Shown here in pieces: positions 3,974 to 31,476 of a DNA stretch of 32,000 bases (positions within the stretch are counted from its first letter, which is position 1; every line of letters begins with the position of its first letter). Made by a program: the position numbers and the translations under genes. The DNA is from Candidatus Korarchaeum cryptofilum OPF8 (GTDB lineage Archaea; Korarchaeota; Korarchaeia; Korarchaeales; Korarchaeaceae): positions 30,001-62,000 of the forward strand of contig NC_010482.1 in NCBI RefSeq assembly GCF_000019605.1, in the 5' to 3' direction. Below the pieces are notes generated by a model. That model saw only the letters and a program-made list of their open reading frames with translations. It did no database searches and had not been told where the DNA came from.

Positions 3974-4001
3974 TATTTTATAGTCCGTTAGCCCATTTTT
4001 A
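3973..4001. promoter_or_regulatory. Putative bidirectional promoter region between nurA and acdA
   Basis: A plus-strand TTATTTTATA (3973..3982) sits upstream of acdA. A minus-strand TTAAAAAT (3994..4001) sits upstream of nurA ATG 3973. The spacing fits archaeal TATA-to-start distances. Confidence 0.4.
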
Positions 4002-4022
4002 ACGTAACCCATGAGGGGGAGC

Positions 4023-5402
4023 ATGAGCCTGGATGTCTTCTTCAAGCCTAGATCCGTAGCTATAGTGGGCGCATCTAGGAGCGAGGAGAAGGTGGGGCAT
4101 GTCATCCTGAGGAGGATGGTGGAAATAGGATTCGAGGGGAAAATATATCCGATAAATCCAAATGCAGATGAGATTTTAGGGATCAAATGCTACAAGTCTA
4201 TCTCAGATATACCTGAAAGCGTTGACTTAGTCGTAGTAGCTGTCAGGGCAGATGCTACGCCCGCAGTAATAGAGGAGGCAGCCGATAAAGGAGCGAGAGG
4301 AGCTCTAGTGATCTCAGGCGGGTTCTCTGAGGTGGGGAACTGGGAGCTGGAGAGGAAGCTCGTTGAGGTTGCGAGGAAGAGAGGTATAAGGGTCATTGGA
4401 CCGAATTGCCTCGGGATATTCGACCCCAAGGACAAAATAGATACACTCTTCCTCCCCGAGAGAGTCATACCGAGGCCAGGGGAGGGGAAAATAGCTGTGA
4501 TCACACAGAGCGGTAGTTTGGGAAGCACTGTGCTCACTATGATGAGGAAAGAGGGTATGGGGATAAGTAAATTCGTGAGCTATGGTAATAGGGCGGATGT
4601 GGATGAGGGTGAGCTATTGGAATATCTCATGGAAGACGAGGATACCCAGGTGATAGCTGCATACATAGAGAGCGTGGCTGACGGGAGGAAGTTCATGGAG
4701 TCCATGAGGAGGGCATCCAGGAGGAAGCCGGTAGTAGTCCTGAAAGGGGGCAAGACGTCATCGGGCGATAGGGCCGTGAGGAGTCATACGGGATCGATGG
4801 CTGGGAGCAGTGAGATATTCCACTCCGCTGTGAAGCAGAGCGGGGGAATAGTTGTAAGCAGCTTAGGGGAATTCTTGGATTCAACTCAGACGTTGGTATC
4901 GCAACCCCCAATGTCGGGAGATAGAGTGGCTGTGATAACTAACGGGGGAGGCTTCGGGATATTAGCTGTGGATGCCCTCGAATCGATAGGCTTCAGGTTG
5001 AACCCGCCTTCCGAACGGCTTGAGAGGAAGCTCAGGGAGATACTCCCCCCTTATTATCCCGTTGGCAATCCGACGGATCTGACTGGTGACTCGACGCCGG
5101 AGCAATTCCTGGAGGTCGGCAGCATATTCTCTGAGAGCGGTGAGTACGATGCCCTCTTCATAATTCCCTTGCTCGGGGTACCTGCTATGATACCGGATAG
5201 GACTCTGAAAGCATTATCGGAGCTCCTGAAATCCTCGAAGATACCTATCGTCGCTGTAGCAGTACCTACGACCGATGAAGTAGATTCCATCCTGAGGGAA
5301 TTGAAGAGGAGGGGATTGCCAGTGTTTCCCACGCCGGAGAGGGCTGCATATTCCCTCCTCTCGCTCAAAAAATACGGAGAAGCCCTCAAAGGTAAGTCTT
5401 AA
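4023..5402 (+). CDS. acdA: Acetyl-CoA synthetase (ADP-forming), alpha subunit / CoA-binding succinyl-CoA-synthetase-like protein
   Basis: The N-terminus carries a CoA-binding Rossmann segment (MSLDVFFKPRSVAIVGASR) and the phosphohistidine loop is SHTGSMAG. About 460 aa is typical of ACD alpha. ATG 4023 is preceded by GAGGGGGAG. ATG 4011 is an alternative start. Confidence 0.85.
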   Translation: MSLDVFFKPRSVAIVGASRSEEKVGHVILRRMVEIGFEGKIYPINPNADEILGIKCYKSISDIPESVDLVVVAVRADATPAVIEEAADKGARGALVISGGFSEVGNWELERKLVEVARKRGIRVIGPNCLGIFDPKDKIDTLFLPERVIPRPGEGKIAVITQSGSLGSTVLTMMRKEGMGISKFVSYGNRADVDEGELLEYLMEDEDTQVIAAYIESVADGRKFMESMRRASRRKPVVVLKGGKTSSGDRAVRSHTGSMAGSSEIFHSAVKQSGGIVVSSLGEFLDSTQTLVSQPPMSGDRVAVITNGGGFGILAVDALESIGFRLNPPSERLERKLREILPPYYPVGNPTDLTGDSTPEQFLEVGSIFSESGEYDALFIIPLLGVPAMIPDRTLKALSELLKSSKIPIVAVAVPTTDEVDSILRELKRRGLPVFPTPERAAYSLLSLKKYGEALKGKS

Positions 5403-7028: not shown

Positions 7029-8306
7029 GTGATGAAAGTGGCTAAGATATCCATAACATGCTTAGGGGGAACTAGGGAAGTTGGGAAGAGCGCTATACTA
7101 CTCGAAGCCGGAAGAACGAAGGTCCTGCTGGACTACGGGATGAAGTTAATACCCAAGCAGCACCCAGAGTTCCCCCCGATCCCGGAGGAAGTAGACGCTG
7201 TGCTCCTCACGCACGCTCACCTAGACCACTCCGGCGCATTGCCCAGGCTCGTGAGTCACGGCATGGAAGTGCCCATCTACGCTCTGGACATAACGAAGTA
7301 CTATACGGAGCTCCTGCTCTACGATTCGATAAAAGTAGCGAAATTGAAGGGCCATAACTTGGGATATGGGGCAAGAGATGTGAACAAGACCTTGGAAAAC
7401 TTCAGGACTATAGATTTCAATATCCCGTTCAAAGTGGGCGATCTCGAAGTCACTGCTATAGATGCGGGACATATACCGGGGAGCGCCATGTTCCACATAA
7501 GTTACGATGGCACCTCCCTGCTCTACACTGGGGACTTCAATACTGTGGAATCGAGGCTCATGCCTCCAGCTAGGATAGAGGACGTCCCTAAAGTGGATAT
7601 ACTGATAACTGAAACGACTTATGCGAAGAAGGAGCACCCACCTAGGGATAAGCAGGAGATACTCTTGAAGGAGACAGTGATGGAGACTTTGAACAGCGGG
7701 GGCACAGCTATAATAGCTGGCTTCGCTATAGGCAGACTGCTGGAGGTCGCGATGGCCCTGAGGGCTAGGGGCTTCAAGGGGGACATATTCCTCGATGGCA
7801 TGGCTAAGAAGAGCACTGAGATAACTTCGGAGTTCTCAAATAAGGTCAGGAATTATGAGGAGATGAGCTTGACGATAAGAAGCATGATCCCCGTGAGGGA
7901 TTGGGGGATGAGGGAGAGGGTAGCGAAGAGGCCCAGCGTCGTGCTCACGACATCGGGCATGCTTGAAGGAGGGCCCGTACATTACTACGTTAAGGAGAGG
8001 AAGGAAGATGAGAGCAGCACTCTCATCCTCACAGGCTATCAGGTCGATGGATCCGAGGGGAGGAGGCTTTTAGAGGAGGGGAAGATGGAGATAGATGGAG
8101 AAGACAACTGGGTTACGATGAAGGTAAATCAGCTCAACTTCTCAGCTCACGTGAGTAGGTCCGGCATCTTGAAGACGATAAGGGATCTCAACCCGAGGGA
8201 GGTAGTAGCGGTCCATGGCGATAGGGCTGATGAATTCGCTGATGAGCTAGATAAGGTCGGAATAGCGGCATATTCGCCTGAAATGGGAGAGACAATTGCT
8301 TTTTAA
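7029..8306 (+). CDS. Beta-CASP metallo-beta-lactamase RNase, aCPSF2-like (no KH domains)
   Basis: The HxHxDH motif is THAHLDHSGALP. Later motifs are consistent with MBL/beta-CASP (DAGHIPGS, TETTY, AVHGD). The protein is 425 aa. ATG 7032 directly follows GTG 7029. Confidence 0.8.
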   Translation: MMKVAKISITCLGGTREVGKSAILLEAGRTKVLLDYGMKLIPKQHPEFPPIPEEVDAVLLTHAHLDHSGALPRLVSHGMEVPIYALDITKYYTELLLYDSIKVAKLKGHNLGYGARDVNKTLENFRTIDFNIPFKVGDLEVTAIDAGHIPGSAMFHISYDGTSLLYTGDFNTVESRLMPPARIEDVPKVDILITETTYAKKEHPPRDKQEILLKETVMETLNSGGTAIIAGFAIGRLLEVAMALRARGFKGDIFLDGMAKKSTEITSEFSNKVRNYEEMSLTIRSMIPVRDWGMRERVAKRPSVVLTTSGMLEGGPVHYYVKERKEDESSTLILTGYQVDGSEGRRLLEEGKMEIDGEDNWVTMKVNQLNFSAHVSRSGILKTIRDLNPREVVAVHGDRADEFADELDKVGIAAYSPEMGETIAF

Positions 8307-9373
8307 CCCCTACTCCTCAATATGAATTCAAGCGGGTAAACCTGGAGGACCTTCCTCTCCTCGGTCGGCATTACCTCGATAAGCCTCCCGTCTAACCCGA
8401 GCTTTTTTATCTCTTTAGAGGCTTTTTCAAAAGAATCTGCTCTCATCAATAGTTTCCCACTCTTGTAATGGCCCCCGTACTTCCTGAAGATTATCATGAG
8501 CTTCTCCTCGGGTCCGCTGACCTCCCCGTATATGAGAGTACCCTCATCCGTCGGCATCTCGTAATCCCTAGCGACATTGGATGCCCTCCTGATCCACCTC
8601 ATCCTCACCTGATATTCCTTCTGGGAGGCCGGGCAGAAGTAACCCATTATCCCAGTCTCCCTCTCCAAATATTCTAGCACTCTCCTAGCGGCTTCCGCGC
8701 TCCCCTCAACTCCAACTTCATCGTCGATCCTCGGCCTCATACCCATTCTCAAGAGGTTCTCTCTGTTTGAAGGTGTGAATTCGAGCTCATTTAGGTTCAA
8801 AAAATCAGCGCCTACCTTATCAAGGAAGCCCGAAAGTAGGATGAGCTTCCTCATCCATCCCTCCCCGGGGATCGATGGCATCTCAGCCCCCACCGAGAAT
8901 CCGAAGGAGACAGCCATTCTTATCTTCTCCCACTTCCTCTCATCCCACGTGTGGAACCTTATCTCATCTACCCCAGCATCGTAGAGAATCGATAGCGCCC
9001 TCTCATCTATACCGATAGAATTGGTGTAAAGATGGACATGAAAATCCCTTCCGAATCTCTCCTTAAGCAACTTAACGTATTCGTAAACCCTATCGGGCAC
9101 GATCGTTGGCTCTCCCCCAGTTATCCCAACTCCTAGAGAGGAGTTGTATTCTATCTCCTCAATGAGAGAGGATTCATCCTCGATAGTCCTCTCGTTCACG
9201 ATTATAAGGTCTCCCTTACCCCTCCTCCAATCGGCTATCGTGCAGTAGAAGCAGCTCCCGTATAAGGGACACTCCCCGGTTATGAAGAGGACGCTCTTGG
9301 CTCCCTTCCAGCAAAGATCGCATCCCTTACTCCATCCCCTCACTCTGAGGGCGCCTAAAGGAAGTTCCTCCAT
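8303..9373 (-). CDS. Radical SAM protein (PflA-related family of unknown function) with a non-canonical CX5CX2C motif
   Basis: The cluster motif reads GECPLYGSCFYC (C-x5-C-x2-C) and the GGE SAM motif is GITGGEPT. Extra N-terminal cysteines occur at CDLCW. The gene follows ahcY after a 1-nt gap. Confidence 0.75.
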   Translation of the reverse strand: MEELPLGALRVRGWSKGCDLCWKGAKSVLFITGECPLYGSCFYCTIADWRRGKGDLIIVNERTIEDESSLIEEIEYNSSLGVGITGGEPTIVPDRVYEYVKLLKERFGRDFHVHLYTNSIGIDERALSILYDAGVDEIRFHTWDERKWEKIRMAVSFGFSVGAEMPSIPGEGWMRKLILLSGFLDKVGADFLNLNELEFTPSNRENLLRMGMRPRIDDEVGVEGSAEAARRVLEYLERETGIMGYFCPASQKEYQVRMRWIRRASNVARDYEMPTDEGTLIYGEVSGPEEKLMIIFRKYGGHYKSGKLLMRADSFEKASKEIKKLGLDGRLIEVMPTEERKVLQVYPLEFILRSRG

Positions 9374-9374
9374 C

Positions 9375-10619
9375 TCAGATCCGCCAACTCCTCAAGTACT
9401 CCTCCTGCTCCTTCGTCAAGCTATCTATCTCGATCCCCATGGATCTGAGCTTTATCCTAGCTACTTCGCTATCTATCCATCTGGGCACCGGTATCACTTT
9501 AGCTGGGAGCTTCCCCCTCTCTTTCACCAGATATTCGATGCTTAAGGCTTGGTTAGCGAAGCTCATATCCATGACCTCACTGGGATGGCCCTCAGCTGCG
9601 ACCAAATTCACCAATCTTCCCTCAGCGAGTAAGTAAACCCTCTTCCCGTTGGGAAGCAGGTACTCCCTCAGGTTCTCCCTCAGATCCCTCTTAGCTAATG
9701 ACATGAGCTCAAGGTCCTTGACAGATACTTCGACATCGAAGTGCCCAGCGTTAGCGAGTATGGCGCCGTCCTTCATCGAGCTCACATGCTCCGCTTTTAT
9801 CACTCCACTATTTCCGGTAGCTGTAACGAATATATCGCCGAGCTTAGCTGCCTCCCTCATTGGCATCACGATGAAACCATCCATCGCGGCCATTAAAGCC
9901 CTTATAGGATCCACTTCAGTCACTATAACTTTGGCACCCATCCCCCTAGCCCTATTAGCTATACCTCTCCCCACATATCCATATCCAGCGACAACGAACC
10001 ACTTACCAGCTATCATTATATTAGTAGCTCTCAATATCCCATCTATAGTGCTCTGCCCCGTCCCGTAAACGTTATCAAAGTTCCTCTTTGTCTCAGCGTT
10101 ATTCACCGCTATCACGGGGTACCTCAGCTTACCATCCCTCTCGAGCGCCATCAACCTCAAGACCCCAGTAGTCGTCTCCTCAGTCCCCCCAGCTATCCTC
10201 TCAGCATAACCTTTCTCATGGGCCATTACAGTAAGGTCTCCACCATCATCCATAGTGAAATCCGGATCAGCCTTGAGGCATTCCTCTATCGCCCAGAAAT
10301 ATTCAGATTCCGACATGCCCCTCCACGCATATACCTCTATTCCCTCCTCAGCCAGAGCTGCCGCTACATCGTCCTGAGTTGAGAGGGGATTCGATGGAGA
10401 GAGGAATATGCGGGCGCCTCCATCCCTGAGAGCAAGCATCAATACAGCTGTCTCCTTAGTGACGTGCATACTAGCGGCGATCCTCAGGCCATCGAGGGGC
10501 CTCTCCTTGAGGAACCTCCTAGCTATCTCCGATAGAACTGGCATATGGGCCCTAGCCCATTCAATAGAATCCTTCCCCTTCCCAGCTAATCCTTCATCCT
10601 TCACCTTGGGCAAATTCAA
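9375..10619 (-). CDS. ahcY: S-adenosyl-L-homocysteine hydrolase (or S-inosylhomocysteine hydrolase), archaeal short type
   Basis: The protein is 414 aa with an NAD-binding GYGYVGRG motif. Conserved segments include HVTKETAVL and EETTTGV. The TTG start overlaps the upstream stop (TTGA). Confidence 0.9.
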
Positions 10620-15958: not shown

Positions 15959-16701
15959 GCGAGAGAAGGATCTGGTTGATGAATTTGAGGGAGTTCAGGG
16001 AGGCCATTGAGGACACGGATCTAGCTATACTCCCGGTAGGTGTCTGCGAGGCTCATGGACCCCACCTCCCCCTGGGGACCGACTTCCTCATCCCGGAGTG
16101 GATCGCCCTGAACTTAGCCGAGAGGCTTAATGCATTGATAGCTCCTCCGATAAACTACGGGGTGACTTTGGGCCTCACAGGTTACTTCGGCACGCTTAGA
16201 GTAAGCGAATCGACGATGGAGTCTCTCATGTACGATGTACTGGTCGATCTGATGAGGAATGGGTTTGAGAAAGTGATAGTGATGAATGGACATGGGGGCT
16301 CGGGTCAAGTAGAAGCTATATCGAGGGCGATGAGGAGGGCATGGCTCGACTACGGGCTGAAGTCAGCTATGATAAACTGGTGGAATTTAGCTAGGGATCT
16401 GACTGAGGAGATATTCGGGGGGAGCGGAGGGCACGCTGGCGTGGATGAGACAGCGATGATCCTAGAGATAGATCCCTCCTTAGTCAAGGGGGAGATGGAG
16501 AGGGAGGAGATATACAGGACGAGGGAAGGCATCTACGCTGTCCCCACTCCCGGCTCCATAATCTCCTACGATGATAGATTCTCTAGCAGGATCCCGGATA
16601 GGGATAAGGCCTCCGAATTCGCTAATAAGCTGCTGGAGAGAATATTCAACGAAGCAATGGCGATAGTTGAGGGATGGGATAGGCAGGAAATTCATTCATA
16701 G
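15955..16701 (+). CDS. Creatininase-family amidohydrolase (ArfB-type formamide hydrolase candidate)
   Basis: The signature AILPVGVCEAHGPHLPLGTDFLIPEW is followed by MNGHGG and HAGVDETA. The start is ATGA-coupled to the upstream gene. Confidence 0.8.
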   Translation: MSERRIWLMNLREFREAIEDTDLAILPVGVCEAHGPHLPLGTDFLIPEWIALNLAERLNALIAPPINYGVTLGLTGYFGTLRVSESTMESLMYDVLVDLMRNGFEKVIVMNGHGGSGQVEAISRAMRRAWLDYGLKSAMINWWNLARDLTEEIFGGSGGHAGVDETAMILEIDPSLVKGEMEREEIYRTREGIYAVPTPGSIISYDDRFSSRIPDRDKASEFANKLLERIFNEAMAIVEGWDRQEIHS

Positions 16702-17421
16702 GAGGCTCTCTCTCCAACTTTTTACCTTTAGAACAATTCTTTTGACGTCATCAGCCCTATGCATCCCTCTTTCCTTCGGATAGAGGGCTAGATAAGGTAT
16801 GCTAGTTCTCATACCGGGGATCACCCTGAGGGGCTCAGATTTAGAGTATATGGATAAGCAGACGACTCTATCGCTTCTCAAAAGGCCCTCAGGACTCCTC
16901 CCATCCACATAGACGAAGCCTATCCTCCTCTCCCTTATCCTAGAGGATATCTCGAGGGCTCCCTCGCCTATCAACTCTAGGGCTATGTAAGCGTTCCTTC
17001 CCACTCCCGAGAGTATCCTCTGCAACTTGCTCATGACTAACCCGTAATTCTGCGGTATAGCGGAATTTGAAGGTCTTATTATTGAAAAATCGGCGTTTAA
17101 AGAGAGTGAGAGGTTTATTGAATCCTCAATGCTCCTGATCGAAGCCTCTGAGATATAAGGGTTGCTGCTGAAGATATTAACATCAGTCTCAGGGGATCTA
17201 ACAGCGACTACGACATCTAAGCTGTTGATGAGATCCCTCAAAGCCCTCACACTCTCCCTGTGCAGTGTCGATGGGAAATAATGAGGGGGATCTGTGGATA
17301 TAACGAGGCCCTCGCACCCGATTTTAATGAGATGAGCTGAAGCATCTCCAATATCTGAGCCCCAGAAGAATTCTGTGGAGCAAAGAAGTCTCAATCCATC
17401 CCTCCTAGCTGACTCTACCAT
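16696..17421 (-). CDS. Hypothetical protein, possibly a degenerate xylose-isomerase-like TIM barrel
   Basis: This is a 241-aa ORF with protein-like composition and an alternating beta/alpha pattern. I recognise no firm motif. Confidence 0.4.
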   Translation of the reverse strand: MVESARRDGLRLLCSTEFFWGSDIGDASAHLIKIGCEGLVISTDPPHYFPSTLHRESVRALRDLINSLDVVVAVRSPETDVNIFSSNPYISEASIRSIEDSINLSLSLNADFSIIRPSNSAIPQNYGLVMSKLQRILSGVGRNAYIALELIGEGALEISSRIRERRIGFVYVDGRSPEGLLRSDRVVCLSIYSKSEPLRVIPGMRTSIPYLALYPKERGMHRADDVKRIVLKVKSWRESLL

Positions 17422-18454: not shown

Positions 18455-18666
18455 AGGCGATGTTTTATACACCTAACTTACTTCTACGATATTTTTATAG
18501 ATCCTTCTCTAGTGGAGCTATCCAGGAGAAATATCAGGAGATCTACTAATAAGAGTGTGATGAAACCGATCTTCAAAAATCTATTTAATGTTTCGGAAAA
18601 TCCTCAGAAATATTAGGCGAATAGCAGGAAAGAGAAAATTAAGGACTCTAACTTTGAAAGGGGAAC

Positions 18667-18740
18667 GGGCCCGGAGGGACTTGAACCCTCGACCTGCGGC
18701 TCCGAAGGCCGCCGCTCTATCCTTGCTGAGCTACGGGCCC
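18667..18740 (-). tRNA. tRNA-Arg (anticodon TCG), no intron, no encoded CCA
   Basis: The reverse complement is GGGCCCGTAGCTCAGCAAGGATAGAGCGGCGGCCTTCGGAGCCGCAGGTCGAGGGTTCAAGTCCCTCCGGGCCC. It folds as a 7-bp acceptor stem, D stem GCTC/GAGC, anticodon stem GCGGC/GCCGC with loop CTTCGGA, and T stem GAGGG/CCCTC with loop TTCAAGT. Confidence 0.92.
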
Positions 18741-21649: not shown

Positions 21650-21955
21650 GTGTCGAGATCTCCCTTAGGGAAATCAAACAGCAAGAGGACTTTCATAAGG
21701 AAGTTAGTGTTGGATGTAGTGAAGCCCCATGAACCGGATATAGTAGAGGTGGCTGATGCCATCTCGAAACTCGATGGGGTTAAGAAAGTGGAGGTAGAGG
21801 TGAGGGATTACGATTCAAACATAGAGAGGCTGAAGCTCATAGTCGAGGGAGATGACTTGGATGAGGATGACATAATGGAGCTCATCAAGTACTACGGAGG
21901 CAATGTAGCGAGCGTCGATGGAGTTACTGTGGAGTCGGAGGAATTTATCGATTGA
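21650..21955 (+). CDS. DUF211 family protein (COG1888, archaea-conserved)
   Basis: RKLVLDVVKPHEPDIVEVADAISKLDGVKKVEVEVRDYDSNIERLKLIVEGDDLDEDDIMELI...SVDGV matches the DUF211 pattern (LDVLKPH...). Confidence 0.8.
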   Translation: MSRSPLGKSNSKRTFIRKLVLDVVKPHEPDIVEVADAISKLDGVKKVEVEVRDYDSNIERLKLIVEGDDLDEDDIMELIKYYGGNVASVDGVTVESEEFID

Positions 21956-23250
21956 GATTTTACATTGAAACCTACGGCTGTTCTATGAATAGATCTGATT
22001 CCCAGATAATGGAGAAGCTACTTGAGGAAGCTGGCCTCATCAGAGTAAATGATCCAAGGGAAGCTGATGTGATAGTACTGAATACTTGTAATGTTAAGAC
22101 CCCCACGGAGCAGAGGATGATTCAGAGAGCTAGAGAGCTCTCGAAATATGCTCCTTTAGTCGTAGCAGGCTGCATGGCTAAATCCCAGGGGTATAAACTG
22201 AAGGATTTCTCCAAAGTTCTAGTAGCTCCGAGGGAGATAGATAAGATAGTTGAAGCTGTTAACTCAGCTATCGCTGGAAGGAGAGCTGAGTTCCTAGAAT
22301 GGAGGTTCATCGACAAATCCTCATATCTGAGGGATCCCCTCGAGCTCGTAGGGATAATCCCGATAGCTGAGGGATGCATGGGGGCTTGCACTTACTGCAT
22401 AACGAGGCTAGCTAGAGGGGGCCTCACTAGTTTTCCTAAGCGAAATATCCTCAGGCTAGCCGAACACTTCCTGAGGAAGGGAGCCGTTGAGCTCTGGCTC
22501 ACATCTGAGGATACAGCAGCTTACGGTAGAGACATGGGCGAAAATCTCGCGAACTTGATAATGGATTTGAGTGATCTACCTGGGGATTTCAGGATCAGGG
22601 TTGGAATGATGACTCCTAGCTCCGCCCTGCCCATATTAAGTGAGCTGATAGGAGCTTACAGATCTCGTAAGGTCTACAAGTTCTTCCACCTGCCCGTCCA
22701 GAGCGGTTCCGACCGGGTGCTCGAGGACATGGGGAGGAACTATACCGTGGATCAGTTCCTGAGTATGGTCGATTTTATAAGGAAGGAGCTTTCAGATGTG
22801 TCGATAGCCACCGATATAATAGTAGGATTTCCAACGGAGGATGAAGAGGATTTCGAGAGTACTTTAGCGATTTTGGAGAGGCTCAAGCCGGATGTAGTGA
22901 ACGTGAGCAAGTTCGGGGCGAGGCCCGGGACTAAGGCAGCGAGCATGAGGAAGCTCCCCGATGCTATAGTATCGAGGAGGAGTAAGGAGGTAAACGAGTT
23001 GGTTGAGAGGATAAAGGAGGAAGTAAATGAGAGATACTTAGGTAGGGAGCTCGAAGTACTTGTCTCAGAGAAGGGGGAGAAGGGATTCCAGGGAAGGACG
23101 AATAGCTATAAGCCTGTGGCCCTCCGCGAAGTGAAACTGGGTCACTTCTATCTAGTGGAGATAGTGGATTTCAGAGCGAACTATCTGATAGGGGAGGTGA
23201 AGGAGGAGCTGGGAAAGGCCGGGCTCCAGATAGAACTCAAGCTCACCTGA
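21952..23250 (+). CDS. mtaB: Methylthiotransferase, archaeal/eukaryotic MtaB (CDKAL1-like) radical SAM enzyme
   Basis: The N-terminal MTTase cluster region is FYIETYGCSMNRSDS...NTCNV...AGCM. The radical SAM motif is CMGACTYC (CX3CX2C), and the C-terminus is TRAM-like. The TTG start overlaps the DUF211 stop (TTGA). Confidence 0.85.
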   Translation: MRFYIETYGCSMNRSDSQIMEKLLEEAGLIRVNDPREADVIVLNTCNVKTPTEQRMIQRARELSKYAPLVVAGCMAKSQGYKLKDFSKVLVAPREIDKIVEAVNSAIAGRRAEFLEWRFIDKSSYLRDPLELVGIIPIAEGCMGACTYCITRLARGGLTSFPKRNILRLAEHFLRKGAVELWLTSEDTAAYGRDMGENLANLIMDLSDLPGDFRIRVGMMTPSSALPILSELIGAYRSRKVYKFFHLPVQSGSDRVLEDMGRNYTVDQFLSMVDFIRKELSDVSIATDIIVGFPTEDEEDFESTLAILERLKPDVVNVSKFGARPGTKAASMRKLPDAIVSRRSKEVNELVERIKEEVNERYLGRELEVLVSEKGEKGFQGRTNSYKPVALREVKLGHFYLVEIVDFRANYLIGEVKEELGKAGLQIELKLT

Positions 23251-23611
23251 AGTCAAGGCCGCTCTTTATCTCAACAGCGCTCTGCTGCCTCGGTTTCAGG
23301 AATTTCGCCATTATCTTATACATATCCCAGGACCAGCTGGGTTCAGAGAAGCTAACTATGTTTATCGTAGCGTAAGAATGCTCCGGCCATGTATGTATGG
23401 CCACATACCCTTTATCAGTCATCAGGAAACCGCTGACCCCATAGGGCTCGAATTCGTGCACGTGTATGTGGAGGACCTTCACCCCACTCTCGTCGGCCGC
23501 ATCCTGTAGTAGTTTCTTCATCAGCTCAGGGGAATCTAGGAAATCCTTTTCAGCAACATCGTACAATTCCGCTATTACCTGAGTCTCCTTAGGTCTTATT
23601 TCAGAGCTCAT
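23243..23611 (-). CDS. S-adenosylmethionine decarboxylase-fold protein (SpeH class 1 family) lacking the self-processing serine
   Basis: FEPYGVSGFLMTDKGYVAIHTWPEHSYATINIVSF aligns with Thermotoga SpeH [36 protein letters not shown]. The ES cleavage dipeptide is replaced by KG, and the TCG cysteine is replaced by F. Confidence 0.75.
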   Translation of the reverse strand: MSSEIRPKETQVIAELYDVAEKDFLDSPELMKKLLQDAADESGVKVLHIHVHEFEPYGVSGFLMTDKGYVAIHTWPEHSYATINIVSFSEPSWSWDMYKIMAKFLKPRQQSAVEIKSGLDFR

Positions 23612-24275
23612 AACTCTCTCCTGGCTTCAAAGCTATTATTTCCGCTTTTATCCCTCTCCTTCCCAGATGTTCCTTTAGTTCCTCGGGCTTCCCCTTGAGC
23701 ACCGGGAAAGTCTGGTAGTGCATGGGTATGACCTTACTAACTCCAAGGAGCTCTATAGCGAGGCTAGCCTCCAACGGACCCATCACGAAGTGTCCTCCTA
23801 TCGGAAGGAGAGCCAGATCAGGTTTGTAGAGCTCACCGATTATCTTCATATCGTAGAAGACCCCCGTATCCCCGGCATGATATACCCTCTTCCCATCTAG
23901 CTCGATGACAGCTCCCACTGGAGCCCCTAAGTTGCTGCTGTGGAGGGCCTTAGTGAGGACTACCTTAACTCCATTGACCTCGAAGAAGCTGCCTATATTG
24001 GCGCCTAGGGAATTAGCTCCCTTCCTCCTCGCTTCCTCGGCTATCTCGTAGATGGATACCACCGTACCCCCGTGTCTCTTCGAGAGCTTTATGGCATCCT
24101 CTAAGCCGTGATCCCCGTGATCGTGCGTGACGATATAGACATCAGCGCCCTTGCATTCCTCAATCTTAATGGGGGACTGCGGATTACCCTCTATCCAGGG
24201 ATCTATTAGGACCCTCTTGCTCCCCTCCAGCAGGAAAGCGGAGTGGCCTAAGAACGTGACCCTCACCAAGCTCAC
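23601..24275 (-). CDS. UPF0173-family metal-dependent hydrolase (MBL fold)
   Basis: VTFLGHSAFLLEGSKRVLIDPW, VTHDHGDHG and YHAGDTG are present. The 224-aa size is typical of UPF0173. Confidence 0.8.
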   Translation of the reverse strand: MSLVRVTFLGHSAFLLEGSKRVLIDPWIEGNPQSPIKIEECKGADVYIVTHDHGDHGLEDAIKLSKRHGGTVVSIYEIAEEARRKGANSLGANIGSFFEVNGVKVVLTKALHSSNLGAPVGAVIELDGKRVYHAGDTGVFYDMKIIGELYKPDLALLPIGGHFVMGPLEASLAIELLGVSKVIPMHYQTFPVLKGKPEELKEHLGRRGIKAEIIALKPGESYEL

Positions 24276-24318
24276 ACCCAGCCTAGTTGAGTGAAGAGCA
24301 AAAAAGCTTTCCCATCGG

Positions 24319-24957
24319 TCATGGAAATCTTCTTAACTTTTTAATGATCTTGCTTAAAAATCTTTCATCTAACTTCCCCGAAGCCTCCGCCTGAGTTTTA
24401 GAGGATAGGGCCTCTAATATCAAGTTCCTTATCTCCCCTCTGCTCTCCCTCCCCAGCATCTCAATGAATAGCTTTTTGACATCCTCCCTCTCAGCGTATA
24501 TTGAAAGGGAGGAAACTAGAGCTAGCCTAACCTTGGGCGAGGGATCCTCCGCTAGGGGAGCTAAATCCTCCACTCCTACTTCCCCCCTATCGAAGAGCTT
24601 CAGGAGGCACTTGAGGTAAGCGATCCTCACGCTAGGCTCTAAGTCTTCACCCCACCCCTCAAGTCGATCCAATAGCTCCCGGCTGCAGAGTTCCCTCAGG
24701 ATGAGAGTAGCCTCATCCCTGAGCTTCTTATCGCGGAGTTTCTCCCTCAATATATCGAGGAATTTCTCCACTTCCCCATTCTCAACATAAAACACCATAT
24801 CGGAGAGGAGGGAAGCCACATCCTCCCCGAAGCACTCATCATATCCGTTCAATATCTCCCCCACTCTCGATTTATTGCCCCTATATTCTTCTGATAACAA
24901 CTGTGAAATTATCTTATATAACGCTAGCTGGCAATCTTCATCTCCCTTAATTTCCAT
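24319..24957 (-). CDS. HEAT/PBS-lyase-like repeat protein
   Basis: Repeats of the D/E-P-S-x-x-V-R-x-A type occur (LEPSVRIAYLKCL; EDPSPKVRLALVSSL). The composition is all-helical and the protein is 212 aa. Confidence 0.55.
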   Translation of the reverse strand: MEIKGDEDCQLALYKIISQLLSEEYRGNKSRVGEILNGYDECFGEDVASLLSDMVFYVENGEVEKFLDILREKLRDKKLRDEATLILRELCSRELLDRLEGWGEDLEPSVRIAYLKCLLKLFDRGEVGVEDLAPLAEDPSPKVRLALVSSLSIYAEREDVKKLFIEMLGRESRGEIRNLILEALSSKTQAEASGKLDERFLSKIIKKLRRFP

Positions 24958-24978
24958 CCCCTCGCTATGTAGTAATAT

Positions 24979-24988
24979 TTATTAATAA
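24979..24988. promoter_or_regulatory. Palindromic AT-rich TATA-like element shared by the divergent HEAT-repeat and tes-like genes
   Basis: TTATTAATAA is its own reverse complement. It lies ~26 nt from minus-strand start 24957 and ~31 nt from ATG 25015, which also has GAGGTGG upstream. Confidence 0.45.
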
Positions 24989-25014
24989 TCATTTCCACAA
25001 GAGGTGGTGTTGAA

Positions 25015-26736
25015 ATGGTAGTCGAGTTGCCCAAGCCCCAGTTCTTCGAGGTAGCTGGGAAGGAAATATATATCGGGGGGCCCAGGCCCCAGCTAAGGGA
25101 GTCGGAGAAGCTCGTCAGACATACATCTTCGATATGTCCCGAGTGCTACAGGATACTCCCGGCCATCTTAGTGGAGAGGGATGGTGCTATATACATAAGG
25201 AAGGTCTGCCCAGAGCACGGTGAGTATGAGGACCTCTACTGGGGGGATTCGGAGCTATTCAGGAAGGCTATGAGATTTGAGGTCAAGGGGAGAGGGATAT
25301 ACCCGCCGCACACGAGCCTTAAAGCGCCTTGCCCTTTCTCCTGCGGTATATGTGAGGCTCACTGGAACACTACGGCCTTAGCCAACTTGGTGGTTACTAA
25401 CAGGTGCAACATGGATTGTTGGTATTGCTTCTTCTACGCTGAGAGAATGGGATACGTCTACGAGCCCAGCCTAGAGGAGATAGATAGGATGGTCGATCTC
25501 ATGCTGAAGGAGAAGCCAGCGCACGGTAATGCCGTTCAGATAACTGGCGGCGAGCCCCTGCTCAGGGACGATATAGTAGAGATAGTGAAGCTGCTCAAGA
25601 GGAAGGGAGTTACGCATATTCAGTTGAATACTGAGGGAGTGGCGTTCCTAGAGAAACCTTGGCTCATGAAGGAACTCAGGGAAGCTGGAGTCAATACTAT
25701 TTACTTCAGTTTCGATGGGGTCACGCCTATAGCCAATCCGAAGACGCATTGGGAGACTCCCTACATACTGGATCTCGCTAGGAAGTCCTCAATGACTAGC
25801 TTAGTGCTCGTCCCGACAGTGATAAAGGGAATAAATGATAGGGAAGTCGGGGATATAGTGAAATTCGCAGCTTATAATATCGATGTGGTGAGGGGGGTCA
25901 ACTTCCAGCCGGTCTCCCTCACGGGGAAGATGCCGAGGGATCAGAGGGATAAATACAGGATAACGATACCAGACGTCATAAAGAGGATAGAGGAGCAGAC
26001 AGATGGACAGATATCAAGGGATTCTTGGTATCCAGTTCCATTCACAGTCCCAATAAGCCAGTTCGTTGAGGCAATAACTGGGAAGCCCAAGTTGATGCTC
26101 ACAAACCATCCAGCTTGCGGGATGGCGACCTACGTTTTCCCGGTATTCGAGAATGTGGATGGGAGGAGGGAAGTGAGGTTCATACCCATAACTGATTTCG
26201 TGGATGTGGAGGGCTTCTACGAATTCCTCTCGGAGAAGACTAGGGAGATAATGGAGGGAGGGAATAGGCTCCTAGTCCTCCTGAAAGTCGTATCGAAGTT
26301 GAGTAGCTTTATAGAGAGGGAGAAACAGCCTCCAGGTCTCGATCTCATAAAAATCCTCAGGAGGATACTGATCAGGAGGAACTATGAGGCCCTAGGGGAA
26401 TTCCATTATAAGGCCTTATTCTTGGGGATGATGCACTTCATGGACCTCTACAACTACGATATCCAGAGGGTGATAAGGTGCGATATACATTACTTCTCCC
26501 CCGACGGGAGGATGATACCCTTCTGCACGTATAATGTGATCTCAGATATATACAGGGATAAGGTCCTCAGGGAGCATTCTATGAGCTTCGAGGAGTACGA
26601 GAGGAAATATGGATCGGGTAAAGTGGGTCCATCGATGAAGTACAAGAGGGATATAAAGAAGCTGGAATCATCCGAGCTATATTTGAAGACATATGAGCCG
26701 TTCATGGATAAAATTAAGTTCAAGAAGGGCGGCTGA
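25015..26736 (+). CDS. tes: Radical SAM tetraether lipid synthase homologue (Tes / GDGT-MAS family, COG1964)
   Basis: Three elements are present: an N-terminal zinc/iron ribbon (SICPECYRILPAILVERDGAIYIRKVCPEHG), an auxiliary-cluster motif (CPFSCGICEAH), and a radical SAM motif (VTNRCNMDCWYC, CX3CX2C) with ITGGEPL. The 573-aa architecture fits the family as I recall it. Confidence 0.72.
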   Translation: MVVELPKPQFFEVAGKEIYIGGPRPQLRESEKLVRHTSSICPECYRILPAILVERDGAIYIRKVCPEHGEYEDLYWGDSELFRKAMRFEVKGRGIYPPHTSLKAPCPFSCGICEAHWNTTALANLVVTNRCNMDCWYCFFYAERMGYVYEPSLEEIDRMVDLMLKEKPAHGNAVQITGGEPLLRDDIVEIVKLLKRKGVTHIQLNTEGVAFLEKPWLMKELREAGVNTIYFSFDGVTPIANPKTHWETPYILDLARKSSMTSLVLVPTVIKGINDREVGDIVKFAAYNIDVVRGVNFQPVSLTGKMPRDQRDKYRITIPDVIKRIEEQTDGQISRDSWYPVPFTVPISQFVEAITGKPKLMLTNHPACGMATYVFPVFENVDGRREVRFIPITDFVDVEGFYEFLSEKTREIMEGGNRLLVLLKVVSKLSSFIEREKQPPGLDLIKILRRILIRRNYEALGEFHYKALFLGMMHFMDLYNYDIQRVIRCDIHYFSPDGRMIPFCTYNVISDIYRDKVLREHSMSFEEYERKYGSGKVGPSMKYKRDIKKLESSELYLKTYEPFMDKIKFKKGG

Positions 26737-27888
26737 ATGATTTACGATGCTGCCATTATAGGAGCCGGCCCCGCTGGATCAGCCGCATCCTTTTTCCTAT
26801 CCCAAAGGGGATATAAGGTAATAGTGATCGAGAGGAGCAGGAAAGCCAGCAGTATCTGCGGGGAGTACGTCCCTGATCCCAGCTCGCTCGGGATCGAAGG
26901 GGAAGTGGGCTCAAGCTACTCTGAATTCTTCAAACCCTTCGTAGTGAATGAACTGAGGAGAATATCCTTCAAAATATTTGGAAGATCCTTCAAAGTCGAT
27001 TACTTAGGATATTCGATAAAGAGGAGTGAGATGGTTGAGGATAGGCTCGAAAGAGCTCAAGACCTCGGAGCCGATGTCAGGCTAGGGGAGAGCTTCATAA
27101 CGCTTGAGAGGGAAGAAGTATATAAAATTTTAACGAGTAAAGGCGAGTATTTTGCAAGATATGTCATAGGAGCGGATGGATTCCTGAGCAGAATTTCAAG
27201 ATTTCTGAATGGAGAGAAGGTAGATCTGGATGATGTCAGCATCGCCTTTCCCATAGAGGCCGAGCTGAAGGTAGAGGATCCGAGTGAGATGAAGCTGATA
27301 TTCGATGAGGAAGTAGCGCCTGGAGCCTATGCATGGATAATCCCCAGGGGGGATTCGAGGGCGAATGTAGGCTTAGGGATAAGGTGCAGCATGATTACGA
27401 TGAACCCTCTAGATTATATGAGAAAATTCCTCTCAATTTTGGGAATTGAAGCTCGGGATCTCAGGGGTAGATTCGTCCCAGTCGGTGGATTGGTCAAGAG
27501 AGTGGCTGAGGACGGTATATTCCTCCTGGGAGATGCGGCAGGCATGGTGATACCATCCAATGGAGGGGGGATCCATAATGCCATAATATCAGCTTATCTG
27601 CTCTCTAAATCCCTCGAAAGCGAACTTCCAGAGGAGAAGTACACTTCCTATGTCAATAGGTACATAAGAGGGGATTTAGAGGCCGGTCTTACCTACAGGA
27701 GAGCTGCTGACGTCCTTCTCAGGCTCGGAATTCTTAAGAAGATGATAGGTCTTCTCCCAAGATCCATGGCTTCCGAGGCCATAACTGGAAGGAGAGGGAA
27801 GTATTACCCCCTCCTCAAAATAGTCTCTTACCTTTACCCCCTATCCAAGGGCAGAGGCGGAAGCCGTTCAGCCTGTAGATTGGCGTAG
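26737..27888 (+). CDS. Geranylgeranyl reductase family FAD-dependent oxidoreductase (digeranylgeranylglycerophospholipid reductase candidate)
   Basis: The FAD motif is YDAAIIGAGPAGSAAS. A conserved Cys segment (SICGEYVP), PVGG and LLGDAAGMVIPSNGGGI are also present. The ATG immediately follows the tes stop. Confidence 0.85.
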   Translation: MIYDAAIIGAGPAGSAASFFLSQRGYKVIVIERSRKASSICGEYVPDPSSLGIEGEVGSSYSEFFKPFVVNELRRISFKIFGRSFKVDYLGYSIKRSEMVEDRLERAQDLGADVRLGESFITLEREEVYKILTSKGEYFARYVIGADGFLSRISRFLNGEKVDLDDVSIAFPIEAELKVEDPSEMKLIFDEEVAPGAYAWIIPRGDSRANVGLGIRCSMITMNPLDYMRKFLSILGIEARDLRGRFVPVGGLVKRVAEDGIFLLGDAAGMVIPSNGGGIHNAIISAYLLSKSLESELPEEKYTSYVNRYIRGDLEAGLTYRRAADVLLRLGILKKMIGLLPRSMASEAITGRRGKYYPLLKIVSYLYPLSKGRGGSRSACRLA

Positions 27889-28879
27889 CACAGCTATCGC
27901 ATTCTAAGACAGTATCGAACTCATCGGAGAACTGAGAAGCCTCATGCGTTGACAATATGAAACATCCTGACTTTGAAAGGGAGGATATGATCCATTTAAT
28001 CTCATCTCTTACCTTTCCATGCAATCTCTCATCCGTTATTGGGCTTAGGAGCGGGGAAATCACTAGGAAATCCCTATCATCATAAGCTAAGCATTGTAAG
28101 AGGACCATGAGGGAAATTGCATTCTTTCCCCTCGCATTCAGCTTTGATAAGTCTATTATGAGCGCCCCTCCGGGCTTCGGGAGCGCTTCATCTATCCTTA
28201 CATGCTCCTCCGATAATGGGAGGAGGATATCATCAACAGAGCTCCTGATGTCCCTCTTCCTAATGACATTGAGGATCGCGGACTGATCGACCCCGAAATA
28301 GGAGAGGAGTTCGGAGAGCGTCAGATCATAGGATGATCCGAGGATCCCCTTATATCCCAACCAGATATCTGATGGGCTCGCAATTCTATGCTCAATATCT
28401 CTGAACCTCTTCGAGGCCTCACCGCTCCAATCAACGAGGATTACTCTCCTCCTCTTAGATATCTCGATGGCTAGAGAGGTGGCCAGAGAGCTCATAATCC
28501 TTACAGACTTACAGATCACTAGATTAGATCCATACGAGGCACTCAAGAGGTCCATCCCTTTAGCTGGGGCTCGATAGGCCTCACTTCTCCGCTTAATCCT
28601 GAAGGGGATGAGAGTCAGCATTAAAATTGGCGGAAAAAAGAAGGAAAGCACGAAGAATATTGGGAAAAAGCTCCTCCTATTTTTCCCGATGATTAGGGCA
28701 AGGTACATAAGGAGGCCGGCTAGAGAGATGCCATAAACCCTCTTCGGATCCGGTATTAAGATCCCCCTGGAGGTCTCAGCTAATATGGAGAGGGTAGCCA
28801 CTAGGATCAGTATGCTGAATGAAATCCTCCTCAGATTCTCATTCAAATTTTCAATTCTTCTGAAGGTTCTCTCTAGCAT
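27815..28879 (-). CDS. Membrane-anchored HerA/FtsK-like protein with degenerate nucleotide-binding motifs (predicted pseudo-ATPase)
   Basis: There are about 3 N-terminal TM helices. The cytosolic part aligns by eye with the bona fide HerA in this window at three places. NLVICKSVRIMSSLATSLAIEISKRRRVILVDWSGEA aligns with HLAILAVTGAGKSNTVAVILEEILRLGGVALLFDVHSEY. LIIDLSKLN aligns with LVVVDLGQLD. FLVISPLLSPIT aligns with VLSVIEEAHILVP. Confidence 0.5.
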   Translation of the reverse strand: MLERTFRRIENLNENLRRISFSILILVATLSILAETSRGILIPDPKRVYGISLAGLLMYLALIIGKNRRSFFPIFFVLSFFFPPILMLTLIPFRIKRRSEAYRAPAKGMDLLSASYGSNLVICKSVRIMSSLATSLAIEISKRRRVILVDWSGEASKRFRDIEHRIASPSDIWLGYKGILGSSYDLTLSELLSYFGVDQSAILNVIRKRDIRSSVDDILLPLSEEHVRIDEALPKPGGALIIDLSKLNARGKNAISLMVLLQCLAYDDRDFLVISPLLSPITDERLHGKVRDEIKWIISSLSKSGCFILSTHEASQFSDEFDTVLECDSCATPIYRLNGFRLCPWIGGKGKRLF

Positions 28880-30455
28880 ATTCGAGAAATACCCTCGCCT
28901 CAGCCCTCCATATCAATCTAGCTTGATGCTGCGCCTCACTCTCACCTAATATGAAGTCCGCTCCGAGCTTAATCAGGGAGCTCAGTAGATCCACTGAGGG
29001 CAGGGATTCGCCTAGATCGATCATAATGGATCCGAAGCTATCCTTCAGGATTCTCAAGAATTTTCCGGAAATTTTATCTATAATATCAATAGGGACCACT
29101 GCTCCTGAGAATACCCCAGATATACCGGGGAGGAAGATCGTTCCAGGATCCTTTAAATATAGAATTAGCTTTATGCCCGGATTAAATGCTATCATTCTCT
29201 TAGCAACTTCAATAGCTGATGAGATATTCGAAGGCCTCAAGATTATCGATTGAACTCCGCATCTCTCTAAAACTTCTCCCCTCAATTCCTCTGACTCGTC
29301 GATCAATAGTATTATGTTTGAACAATCGACTTCCCCACTAGTTACATGCTCCTGCGTTAATACGAATCCATCAACTCCAAATATCGCACTAGGGCCAAAT
29401 AGATATACCCTTGAGCCAATGGGTGGGAATTCCATCTCCCTAATAACTTGAGGGATCTTTTGCTTCCTCCTCTCGGTGACCACTTCCACTGCCCTCGATT
29501 GAATCATATCGATAACCTTCTTCTCCAAAGATTTTATTTTTGGTTTCTCGGATTCCCTGTATGCCTGAATAATGAATATCTCATTTGTACCTTCCTGAAT
29601 GATCCACTCCATCACGTTAGGCGTTCCGAAGATCGGTGAGAGGTCAAGGGAGATATTAGCTATCCTCAAGACCTCTTCCTTTGATATAGAGGGCATTAAC
29701 CATAGATCAGTCTCCAAATCGAACTCCTTAAGCCCCTTATCAGTCGGCAGTAACTTCGTCTTCTTCTCATTTATCTCGCTCTCAATTATCTCCCTGAGGT
29801 CTATCCCCACTCTGAACTTATCGGAGGGTCTCTCATCGAAGGAACCCCATGTGGACCTTATCACTATCTCATTCCTCCTGGCCGGGCAGCAAACAGCTAC
29901 GCCTGATGACCTGGGGACAATGGCCTCCTGTATCATCAGGGCCAGGGAGAGATCCTCCGGATAAGAGCCCAGATCATAGATCCTAGCGAGTGTCCTCAAG
30001 TTAAAGGATTCAGATAAAACTTTTTGAATAGCTCTCAAGATTTCCTTCCTCTCAGGCTTGAAATACCATATCTGCATCCTGCCCTTGAGATCCCCCTCTG
30101 ATATGCCCTGAGAGAAGGGGGAGGGGCGTATTATAGCTAAGTCCCTTATCCTCCCATCGATCGCTCTCATAAGTTCCTCGATCAATTCCTCGGGTATCTG
30201 AACTGATGAGAGGGAGGACTTGAGCTCCCTCTCCATCTCCAAGAGGTAGTTCCAATCCTCCGAGATCAGAGATCTGGAGAGTTCAAATATCTCGTGCCTC
30301 AGGCCCTCCATCAGGATCTTGGAAACCTCTGTGGATGGGATCAAGAATGTCTCGGGGACCTTCAGTCCCTCAGATAATACTTTCGCCAAGTTCCAGGCTT
30401 TAGAACCGACTTCCTCCTCCGATCTGAGCGGGACTTCTCTCAACGATAGGATCAT
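28851..30455 (-). CDS. PEP-utilizing-enzyme-like protein: PPDK_N ATP-grasp nucleotide-binding domain plus a C-terminal region, with no recognisable phosphohistidine swivel domain
   Basis: The N-terminus (EVGSKAWNLAKVLSEGLKVPETFLIP, AIIRPSP, LALMIQEAIVPRSSGVAV) follows the PPDK_N/PEP synthase pattern (vGGKganL..g..VP.gf; AVRSSA; vvvQ.mv...sGV). No GGxTSHAAI-type motif is present. ATG is preceded by GGAGGTGA. Confidence 0.6.
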   Translation of the reverse strand: MILSLREVPLRSEEEVGSKAWNLAKVLSEGLKVPETFLIPSTEVSKILMEGLRHEIFELSRSLISEDWNYLLEMERELKSSLSSVQIPEELIEELMRAIDGRIRDLAIIRPSPFSQGISEGDLKGRMQIWYFKPERKEILRAIQKVLSESFNLRTLARIYDLGSYPEDLSLALMIQEAIVPRSSGVAVCCPARRNEIVIRSTWGSFDERPSDKFRVGIDLREIIESEINEKKTKLLPTDKGLKEFDLETDLWLMPSISKEEVLRIANISLDLSPIFGTPNVMEWIIQEGTNEIFIIQAYRESEKPKIKSLEKKVIDMIQSRAVEVVTERRKQKIPQVIREMEFPPIGSRVYLFGPSAIFGVDGFVLTQEHVTSGEVDCSNIILLIDESEELRGEVLERCGVQSIILRPSNISSAIEVAKRMIAFNPGIKLILYLKDPGTIFLPGISGVFSGAVVPIDIIDKISGKFLRILKDSFGSIMIDLGESLPSVDLLSSLIKLGADFILGESEAQHQARLIWRAEARVFLEYARENLQKN

Positions 30456-31225
30456 TCGATCACCTCCAATGAGATCTCATAATTCAAATCAGCATTCAAT
30501 AGTTCTGCAGCGCTCCCCTTAGCGATAGAAACCTCAAGTAAATCGCTACTCCCCCTTATGAGGAGGAGCCCCCTGTACTCATAGTTAGGGGATACTCTAG
30601 CTCTCCCATAGGAATCGCCCACTCTCACAATAGCCTCTTCAAATCTCACATAGCTCCAGGGTATGTTAGTCACTATATTACCGAATCGGTCTACGTTCCT
30701 AACTTCGCCTACGATCCTTCTCCCCTCAGCCCTGATCCTCCATAAGTCGAGGATCTCCAGGGACTTCTTCTCAAAACCCAGTTCGTCCATTGATTTACCG
30801 CAGGCTAGCATAGCAGCTATAGGAGCGAACACATCTCTACCATCGAATGTCCCGGTCCTCCTCTCAGCTAGTCCAGTGCTCCTTAGATCTATCTTATAAG
30901 CCTCATAAGACCCTATGCTTTGGACGGCTGGCCAAAACAAGCCATTATCAGGCCCTACGAAAGTGAATTGTCCCGACCTTATCATCACCGGATCCCTAGA
31001 AGTCCCGACTCCCGGATCCACTACTCCAACTATTATCGAATTTTTCTCGAGCCATTTCAAGCTCTGCCAGAGTAGAAATGCTCCATGCCTCACATCGAAC
31101 TTCCTGACTTCATGAGTCAGGTCGATTATCTCGGCCCTCTGGCAGATAGATTTTATCACGCCCTTAAGAGCTCCTACATAGTAGTCCTGATACCCGAAAT
31201 CGGTAAGTAGGTATAGAGTGACCAT
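30452..31225 (-). CDS. SAM hydroxide adenosyltransferase (DUF62; chlorinase/fluorinase-like family)
   Basis: MVTLYLLTDFGYQDYYVGALKGVIKSI...IDLTHEV...FDVRHGAF, VVDPGVG and PDNGL are family hallmarks. ATG 31225 is preceded by GGAGGTGA. The track's GTG 31243 is probably too far upstream. Confidence 0.85.
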   Translation of the reverse strand: MVTLYLLTDFGYQDYYVGALKGVIKSICQRAEIIDLTHEVRKFDVRHGAFLLWQSLKWLEKNSIIVGVVDPGVGTSRDPVMIRSGQFTFVGPDNGLFWPAVQSIGSYEAYKIDLRSTGLAERRTGTFDGRDVFAPIAAMLACGKSMDELGFEKKSLEILDLWRIRAEGRRIVGEVRNVDRFGNIVTNIPWSYVRFEEAIVRVGDSYGRARVSPNYEYRGLLLIRGSSDLLEVSIAKGSAAELLNADLNYEISLEVIE

Positions 31226-31275
31226 CGGAAGTTCACCTCCCACTATTTTTTAATATTGTCGTTACAGGGTATCCT

Positions 31276-31476
31276 GTGAAGTTGAAGGGCTTACTTTTCG
31301 GCTTGGGTGGAATCGCTCTACTGACGACTTCGTTCTTAGTCTTAATAGTAGATGAGAGGAGCTTAATCCAGATCCTGAGGGTATTAAGTTCGATAGGGCT
31401 GTTGATAATCTCATCCTTAATGCTGATAATAGCTTGGAAGCTGCTAACTATGAGACCGGCTCCTCCAGCCTCCTGA
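31276..31476 (+). CDS. Possible small two-TM membrane protein
   Basis: This is a 66-aa ORF with a GTG start and two hydrophobic helices. There is no other support. Confidence 0.3.
   Translation: MKLKGLLFGLGGIALLTTSFLVLIVDERSLIQILRVLSSIGLLIISSLMLIIAWKLLTMRPAPPAS

Follow-up and report, generated by a model that had tools for sequence, protein, structure and literature searches.

A DUF62 protein, a swivel-less PEP synthase derivative and a predicted membrane-anchored protein encoded in tandem beside the tetraether synthase gene of Candidatus Korarchaeum cryptofilum

A stretch of 32,000 nucleotides from Candidatus Korarchaeum cryptofilum OPF8 (contig NC_010482.1, positions 30,001 to 62,000 of the forward strand; hereafter the window, in whose numbering all coordinates are given) carries three adjoining minus-strand genes, termed here g1, g2, and g3. 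These encode a DUF62/SAM_HAT protein of 257 aa (30452..31225), a descendant of phosphoenolpyruvate (PEP) synthase (PEPS) of 534 aa that has no swivel domain (28851..30455), and a 354-aa alpha/beta protein with a predicted membrane anchor (27815..28879). Convergent with g3, on the plus strand, lie a GGR-family paralogue (26737..27888) and Tes, a radical S-adenosylmethionine (SAM) tetraether synthase gene (25015..26736). Tes is matched by the NCBIfam model rSAM_GDGT_ether at 4.4e-220 (731 bits; cut-off 450), and the GGR paralogue by GG-red-SF at 162 bits (cut-off 158.8), with a score under the cut-off of the DGGGPL reductase equivalog in the same collection.

The three genes are chained by short overlaps, as described in the original prediction. 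The ATGA at 30452-30455 combines the stop of g1 with the start of g2, and g2 and g3 share 29 nt (28851-28879), given that g3 starts at the ATG at 28879, a position backed by the N-termini of close orthologues. The longest open reading frame (ORF) of g1 spans 30452..31243 and begins at a GTG at 31243; the originally proposed ATG at 31225 is the preferred start, because all orthologues begin MVTLY. About 25 nt upstream of this ATG, a TATA-like AT-rich box read from the sequence (ATATTAAAAAATA, 31244..31256, minus strand) suggests a leaderless or near-leaderless first gene, and a Shine-Dalgarno-like element (GGAGGTGA, 30460..30467, minus strand) precedes the ATG of g2 by 4 nt. Across orthologous loci, g1 and g2 lie at most 4 nt apart and overlap by up to 20 nt; for g2 and g3, the extremes are a gap of 1 nt and an overlap of 22 nt. 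This tightness, conserved across Korarchaeales, together with the Shine-Dalgarno-like sequence before g2 and the ATGA that joins g1 to g2, would suit a single membrane-tethered complex of the three products, in which g3 would anchor a nucleoside or phosphotransfer module. The overlaps had indeed been offered at first as an argument for such a physical association; however, among the other 16 pairs of neighboring ORFs on the same strand of the window, 9 overlap or come within 1 nt of each other (a count based on longest-ORF starts, which inflates overlaps). Since overlapping genes are usual in this window, as in this genome, overlap alone is no argument for a complex.

All three are real genes. 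Measured against locus L004, which is 86-95% identical, the ratio of nonsynonymous to synonymous substitution rates (dN/dS) is 0.06 for g1, 0.11 for g2, and 0.18 for g3, with 0.05 for Tes; within g2, the N-terminal part gives 0.05 and the C-terminal part 0.19. Such low values indicate purifying selection and therefore function for each gene. They also bear on the notion that g2 and g3 are functionless remnants in decay, g2 of a PEP synthase and g3 of a P-loop ATPase, which would account for the disappearance of their catalytic hallmarks (a Cys and the swivel His domain in g2, Walker A in g3). Set against those ratios, the intact reading frames, and the many invariant columns shared by g2 and g3 orthologues only ~40% identical, decay without function is highly improbable.

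The product of g1 belongs to the DUF62 family, with Pfam matches to SAM_HAT_N (3.4e-50, 170 bits; cut-off 26.3) and SAM_HAT_C (3.1e-11, 43.9 bits; cut-off 25.5), and it is 40-45% identical to solved DUF62 structures. It scores under both NCBIfam (R)-SAM hydrolase equivalog cut-offs (169 against 350 bits and 137 against 470 bits). A review describes an Asp-Arg-His triad that activates the water nucleophile as strictly conserved in these enzymes (PMC10491745). The g1 protein retains Asp70 and Arg77 of the triad as well as the GVVDPGVGT and GPDNG motifs, whereas its His position is occupied by Asp128 (codon 30842-30844), so that TFDGRD aligns with TFHGRD of the solved structures 2zbu, 2cw5, and 1wu8. 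The family member PH0463 has His127 at this place, and every solved DUF62 structure whose alignment was inspected likewise has His. Asp128 is invariant across the Korarchaeia orthologues, and the exchange is not specific to them: in the 120 top homologues from the database (P0041-P0160), a sample picked by shared words and hence biased toward the motif of g1 itself, the position holds Asp in 60, His in 43, and Glu in 8, while 80 metagenomic DUF62 loci show His in 61, Asp in 8, and Glu in 6. No characterized Asp-variant DUF62 protein was found among the near relatives of g1. DUF62 enzymes of thermophilic archaea are (R)-SAM hydrolases that clear the inactive (R)-epimer of SAM (bioRxiv 10.1101/2025.08.29.672840). 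The initial assignment of g1 to DUF62 holds, while the sub-threshold equivalog scores and the Asp in place of the triad His temper the SAM cleavage attributed to it: judged by family membership, g1 likely hydrolyzes SAM to adenosine and methionine, its substrate is probably the heat-generated (R)-sulfonium epimer, and it appears to use Asp where characterized DUF62 enzymes have His.

The g2 protein was originally described as a PPDK/PEPS-type ATP-grasp protein without a phosphohistidine domain, and Pfam, NCBIfam, and Foldseek all agree. Residues 1-305 (29541..30455, minus strand) form the PEPS/PPDK-type ATP-grasp domain, delineated by Pfam PPDK_N (6.1e-59, 200 bits; cut-off 27; residues 14-317), Foldseek, and hhalign. 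The NCBIfam models for PEPS, rifampin phosphotransferase, and PigC match only this part and remain far under their cut-offs (72 against 1063 bits for PEPS). An AlphaFold2 model built from 19 sequences (mean predicted local distance difference test score, pLDDT, of 82) comprises the ATP-grasp domain, a linker in which residues 322-340 fall below a pLDDT of 50, and a compact C-terminal domain. The linker region, a helix followed by a variable, low-confidence segment (residues 306-345; 29421..29540), occupies the place of the swivel phosphohistidine domain in PEPS and differs in length and sequence among the aligned proteins; Pfam finds no PF00391 (PEP-utilizers) domain in g2. The only invariant His of the protein, H54, belongs to the ATP-grasp domain, and the full-length PEPS of locus L030 has His at this position too.

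What the first description overlooked is the C-terminal part of g2 (residues 346-534 and the stop codon; 28851..29420, minus strand) and, with it, the descent of the gene from a full PEPS. In the AlphaFold2 model, this part consists of eight alternating strands and helices followed by a long terminal helix, a compact (beta/alpha)8-like remnant of the PEP-binding triosephosphate isomerase (TIM) barrel of PEPS. Foldseek places it with TIM-barrel folds, among them the S. marinus PEPS domain that binds PEP (9dae), transaldolase, and triosephosphate isomerase. By sequence, this domain matched nothing in Pfam or in profile searches of the PDB (best, hexulose-phosphate synthase at E 0.13), and only the structure model and hhalign against full PEPS proved informative. 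The likeness to PEPS/PPDK therefore extends over both ends of the protein: the PPDK_N ATP-grasp with K19, R110, E283, and Q297, all invariant in g2 and aligned with the K, R, E, and Q of PEPS, and the C-terminal domain with its terminal helix, homologous to the end of the PEP-binding domain. The differences are the missing swivel domain, a barrel of ~190 aa rather than ~300, and an altered catalytic motif, with PEPS ICGQAPSV paired by hhalign with DLGESLPSV and an invariant Leu481 at the Cys position. The Cys of the CGQ/CGE motif is the catalytic proton donor in EI, PPDK, and PEPS. Lacking both this residue and the phosphohistidine swivel domain, g2 cannot be a dikinase by itself. In archaeal PEPS, the oligomeric core of the 24-mers is made up of the C-terminal domain (bioRxiv 10.1101/2022.08.11.503304); as g2 keeps the terminal helix of that domain, oligomerization may persist. 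A near-invariant Cys-Cys pair (AVCCPARR) is also present in the ATP-grasp domain of g2 at residues 189-190 (window ~29886-29891), and the PEPS of P. furiosus has been reported to contain a Cys42-Cys189 disulfide (bioRxiv 10.1101/2022.08.11.503304).

Two-component small-molecule dikinases are documented, in which an ATP-grasp protein is separate from its swivel partner (PMC12167813), and g2 could accordingly be the ATP-grasp half of such an enzyme, comparable to HpeI in HpeHI or PpsB in phenylphosphate synthase, with the swivel partner encoded elsewhere in the genome. The N-terminal part of g2 matches HpeI by Foldseek at E 1e-14, beside rifampin phosphotransferase's ATP-grasp domain at E 2.5e-20 and PEPS, and its four invariant ATP-grasp residues would suit such a role. 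In the known two-component systems, however, the His-swivel/substrate-binding partner adjoins the ATP-grasp gene, whereas neither g1, nor g3, nor any other scanned ORF of the window carries a PF00391 domain, and g3 has no conserved His. Moreover, g2 retains a TIM-barrel remnant that HpeI lacks, and two of its PEPS-aligned ATP-grasp positions are altered (DVEW to VMEW and QARPE to QAYRE). A divided dikinase is decidedly unlikely on this evidence, and the anatomy and synteny of g2 point rather to an oligomeric adenine-nucleotide-binding protein, presumably with a changed, non-PEP-forming role.

The origin of g2 beside a DUF62 gene can be followed in loci L029 and L030. Both contain a DUF62 gene whose product is 49% identical to g1 and also reads TFDGRD, followed 29-38 nt later by a PEPS gene that is full-length (823-826 aa) and has all three Pfam domains. 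Upstream they share ThpR and a small opposite-strand ORF, and downstream they carry RsmF/PUA genes, as in the Methanodesulfokora locus L028. When the g2 family is compared with PEPS of this type by hhalign, the ATP-grasp domains align with a probability of 99% (E 5e-19), and the C-terminal profile of g2 aligns with PEPS residues 756-810, covering the terminal helix and the final unit of the barrel (E 1e-4, probability 57%). Its position, together with the homology at both ends, shows g2 to be a descendant of a PEP synthase that already stood downstream of DUF62 in an ancestor; it has lost its carrier domain and presumably the pyruvate/PEP chemistry, and yet remains constrained. The arrangement is specific to this clade: in the 80 metagenomic DUF62 loci, no PPDK_N/PEPS gene lies within 4 kb, and the literature search returned no paper describing a link between DUF62 and PEPS.

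The product of g3 begins with three hydrophobic helical segments (residues 16-95; 28595..28834, minus strand) that would serve as a membrane anchor, placed at 16-42, 47-66, and 69-95 by Kyte-Doolittle analysis and at 14-36, 45-65, and 68-89 by AlphaFold2. These are followed by an alpha/beta domain without Walker A (residues 110-354; 27818..28552, minus strand; alignments A2 and A6). The three N-terminal segments and the lack of a P-loop had both been noted originally, and the latter extends to the whole family, as Walker A is absent from all 18 members. Conserved motifs include VLVDWxG and LIIDxS; no His is conserved in the family, and its korarchaeal members share three invariant Cys residues, C327, C330, and C343 (nt 27851-27901). 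When 1.84 billion representatives were searched exhaustively by profile, only 9 proteins emerged. Searches of Pfam, NCBIfam, PADLOC, and the PDB, the last by single sequence and by profile, gave no match for g3, which represents an undescribed small family that Pfam, NCBIfam, and the PDB do not contain. PADLOC likewise returned nothing for g1, g2, or g3 at E values up to 1, in agreement with the earlier statement that the triad matches no described defense or transport system.

A HerA/FtsK fold had been attributed to g3, and this attribution has weak support. The g3 model shares with FtsK-HerA proteins (HerA, VirB4) a strand-loop-helix-strand core, and the family has an hhhhD motif where Walker B would be; however, the DE of Walker B occurs in no member, and the family has neither Walker A nor any DUF87, HerA_C, AAA_10, or HAS-barrel match. 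With a low-confidence model (pLDDT 55), Foldseek gave weak matches to VirB4 (4ag5_C, E 0.017, TM 0.32/0.41) and HerA (4d2i_B, E 0.1). In the PDB, neither a single-sequence search nor two profile searches detected a relationship to HerA, FtsK, ParA, or KaiC. The window itself offered a control, the HerA (1291-2883) of a canonical Mre11-like, HerA, and NurA cluster on the minus strand (120-4186; DUF87 6e-39, HAS-barrel, HerA_C; NurA 1e-21). A Pfam scan of the 18 g3 family members and hhalign against this HerA were both negative, and the label "pseudo-HerA" may serve as a lead, not as a finding.

In Korarchaeales, loci whose g2 is as little as 39% identical repeat the order ThpR, g1, g2, g3, followed by GGR and Tes in convergent orientation. 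All six genes stand in this order in loci L001-L004 and L007-L011, and loci on shorter contigs match it as far as their length covers. The whole region being syntenic in Korarchaeales, conservation of the triad there is by itself weak evidence, and deeper relatives are more informative. In those relatives, the neighborhood put forward in the original prediction does not hold together, and its two parts occur apart. The pair g1-g2 is found without g3 in L017, with a deacetylase-like gene as the next one after g2, and in the Methanodesulfokora loci L027 and L028, whose g2 is only ~21% identical. A 338-aa gene near DUF62 in Methanodesulfokora was considered as a relocated g3 and is not a g3 homologue.

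Conversely, six g3 homologues (P0034-P0037, P0039, and P0040, in L018, L020, L021, L023, L025, and L026) occur without g1-g2, and all six of these distant homologues with recoverable context adjoin Tes and/or a GGR paralogue; in every lineage examined, the distance to one or both is ~0-1.5 kb. Orientation, inserted genes, and upstream partners differ among them. In L020, L023, L025, and L026, g3 and GGR-Tes converge, with overlapping 3' ends, while in L018 and L021 it is co-directional with Tes, with a HAD gene, or MobB and AroM genes, in between. The Tes proteins of the distant loci are 57-67% identical to Tes of the window, compared with 77-95% within Korarchaeales. The upstream partner of g3 varies by lineage, being a secreted single-transmembrane coiled-coil protein or none. 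Genes of 254-270 aa upstream of the g3 homologues in L020 and L023 were compared with g2 and are not g2-like; they encode secreted beta-domain, single-transmembrane, coiled-coil proteins.

In the window, g3 and the convergent GGR paralogue have 74 nt of their 3' coding ends in common (27815-27888); elsewhere, the two overlap by 68 (L002), 68 (L003), 62 (L020), 52 (L023), 29 (L025), and 30 nt (L026). This overlap persists in lineages whose g3 is only 27-34% identical, and it could itself help keep both genes linked. Other genes also accompany Tes: an MBL-fold (Lactamase_B_3) gene lies beside it in all five of L018, L020, L021, L023, and L025, a HEAT-repeat gene in the majority of them, and an AdoMet decarboxylase (AdoMetDC) gene in L020, L023, and L025. 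HEAT-repeat and MBL-fold genes are likewise found in the window (23601-26736), and the recurrence of such neighbors suggests a wider conserved cluster centered on Tes. In the distant lineage of L021/L022, the Tes gene (1476-4583) carries an intein with a LAGLIDADG endonuclease domain. The literature searched describes no accessory membrane protein or partner protein of Tes.

These distributions make it somewhat probable that the triad is a lineage-specific juxtaposition of two older gene neighborhoods rather than a dedicated three-protein machine. One module would consist of g1, the DUF62 adenosyl-transfer enzyme, and g2, the former PEP synthase; the other would be g3, membrane-anchored, without a P-loop, and tied to the Tes/GGR lipid cluster. 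The two would have been brought into one tight co-directional unit in Korarchaeales, where their co-transcription may add a functional link, and the anatomy and synteny of g3 suggest that it acts at the membrane with the tetraether lipid machinery. Several observations weigh against this account. The g2/g3 junction stays tight across Korarchaeales orthologues only ~40% identical, which could reflect selection for co-expression or interaction. The link between g3 and Tes is one of synteny only, and the lineages that display it are not independent samples, because they share other neighbors as well (HEAT, MBL, AdoMetDC). The structure modeled for g3 is also of low confidence, with a mean pLDDT of 54.7.

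The membrane-tethered complex of all three products can be weighed against the same loci. In one version, its task at the membrane, near the radical-SAM tetraether synthase, would be the removal of (R)-SAM or the recycling of adenosine, a role to which the convergence of g3 with GGR-Tes and the SAM-using genes around the locus (Tes, a MiaB-like radical-SAM enzyme, AdoMet decarboxylase, and S-adenosylhomocysteine (AdoHcy) hydrolase) would lend themselves. Nevertheless, the g1-g2 and g3 modules separate in relatives, and g3 elsewhere has another upstream partner or none; a dedicated complex is thus unlikely. A more specific proposal, regarded as quite unlikely, is that g3 is a membrane-anchored pseudo-nucleoside triphosphatase accessory factor of Tes, which in Korarchaeales would be coupled to a SAM-repair module made up of the Asp-variant DUF62 protein and the former PEP synthase as a scaffold, bringing (R)-SAM clearance to the membrane site of radical-SAM lipid chemistry. 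Juxtaposition of two older neighborhoods remains the preferred reading of the locus.

Several other features were recorded in the window. Between ThpR and g1, on the strand opposite to g1, a 66-aa ORF with two hydrophobic segments (31276-31476, plus strand) is conserved among Korarchaeia loci, with tblastn E values as low as 9e-24 and identities of 38-92%, and matches nothing in Pfam. Besides Tes and g1, genes of SAM metabolism at 8303-10619 and 21952-23611 encode AdoHcy hydrolase, two radical-SAM proteins (one MiaB-like), and AdoMet decarboxylase, a richness that may be coincidence. Next to tRNA-Arg(TCG) (18666-18740, minus strand), the only non-coding feature returned by Rfam and repeat scans of the window, the segment 17001-18000 has a low G+C content (0.40 against ~0.49 elsewhere), with a 241-aa ORF (16696-17421) without Pfam match and ~1.2 kb without an ORF of at least 110 aa. 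Neither an Rfam match nor a repeat array was found in this segment, which could be integrated or otherwise foreign.

As a whole, the operon matches no described system; its parts are of ordinary ancestry and narrow distribution, and it does not constitute a new kind of system. For the DUF62 family, g1 draws attention to the large share of proteins with Asp or Glu at a His considered strictly conserved, variants that appear to be uncharacterized. As a swivel-less PEPS derivative, g2 would, if this account is true, be a natural case of a PEP synthase that shed its phosphohistidine carrier while remaining under selection, and hence a pseudoenzyme or repurposed nucleotide-binding oligomer whose ancestry is traceable by genome position. 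The most valuable lead is the association of g3 with Tes. If the preferred reading is correct, g3 would be the most consistent non-enzymatic neighbor of Tes in several archaeal lineages and a specific candidate for an accessory factor of the tetraether lipid pathway, the membrane organization of which is not understood.

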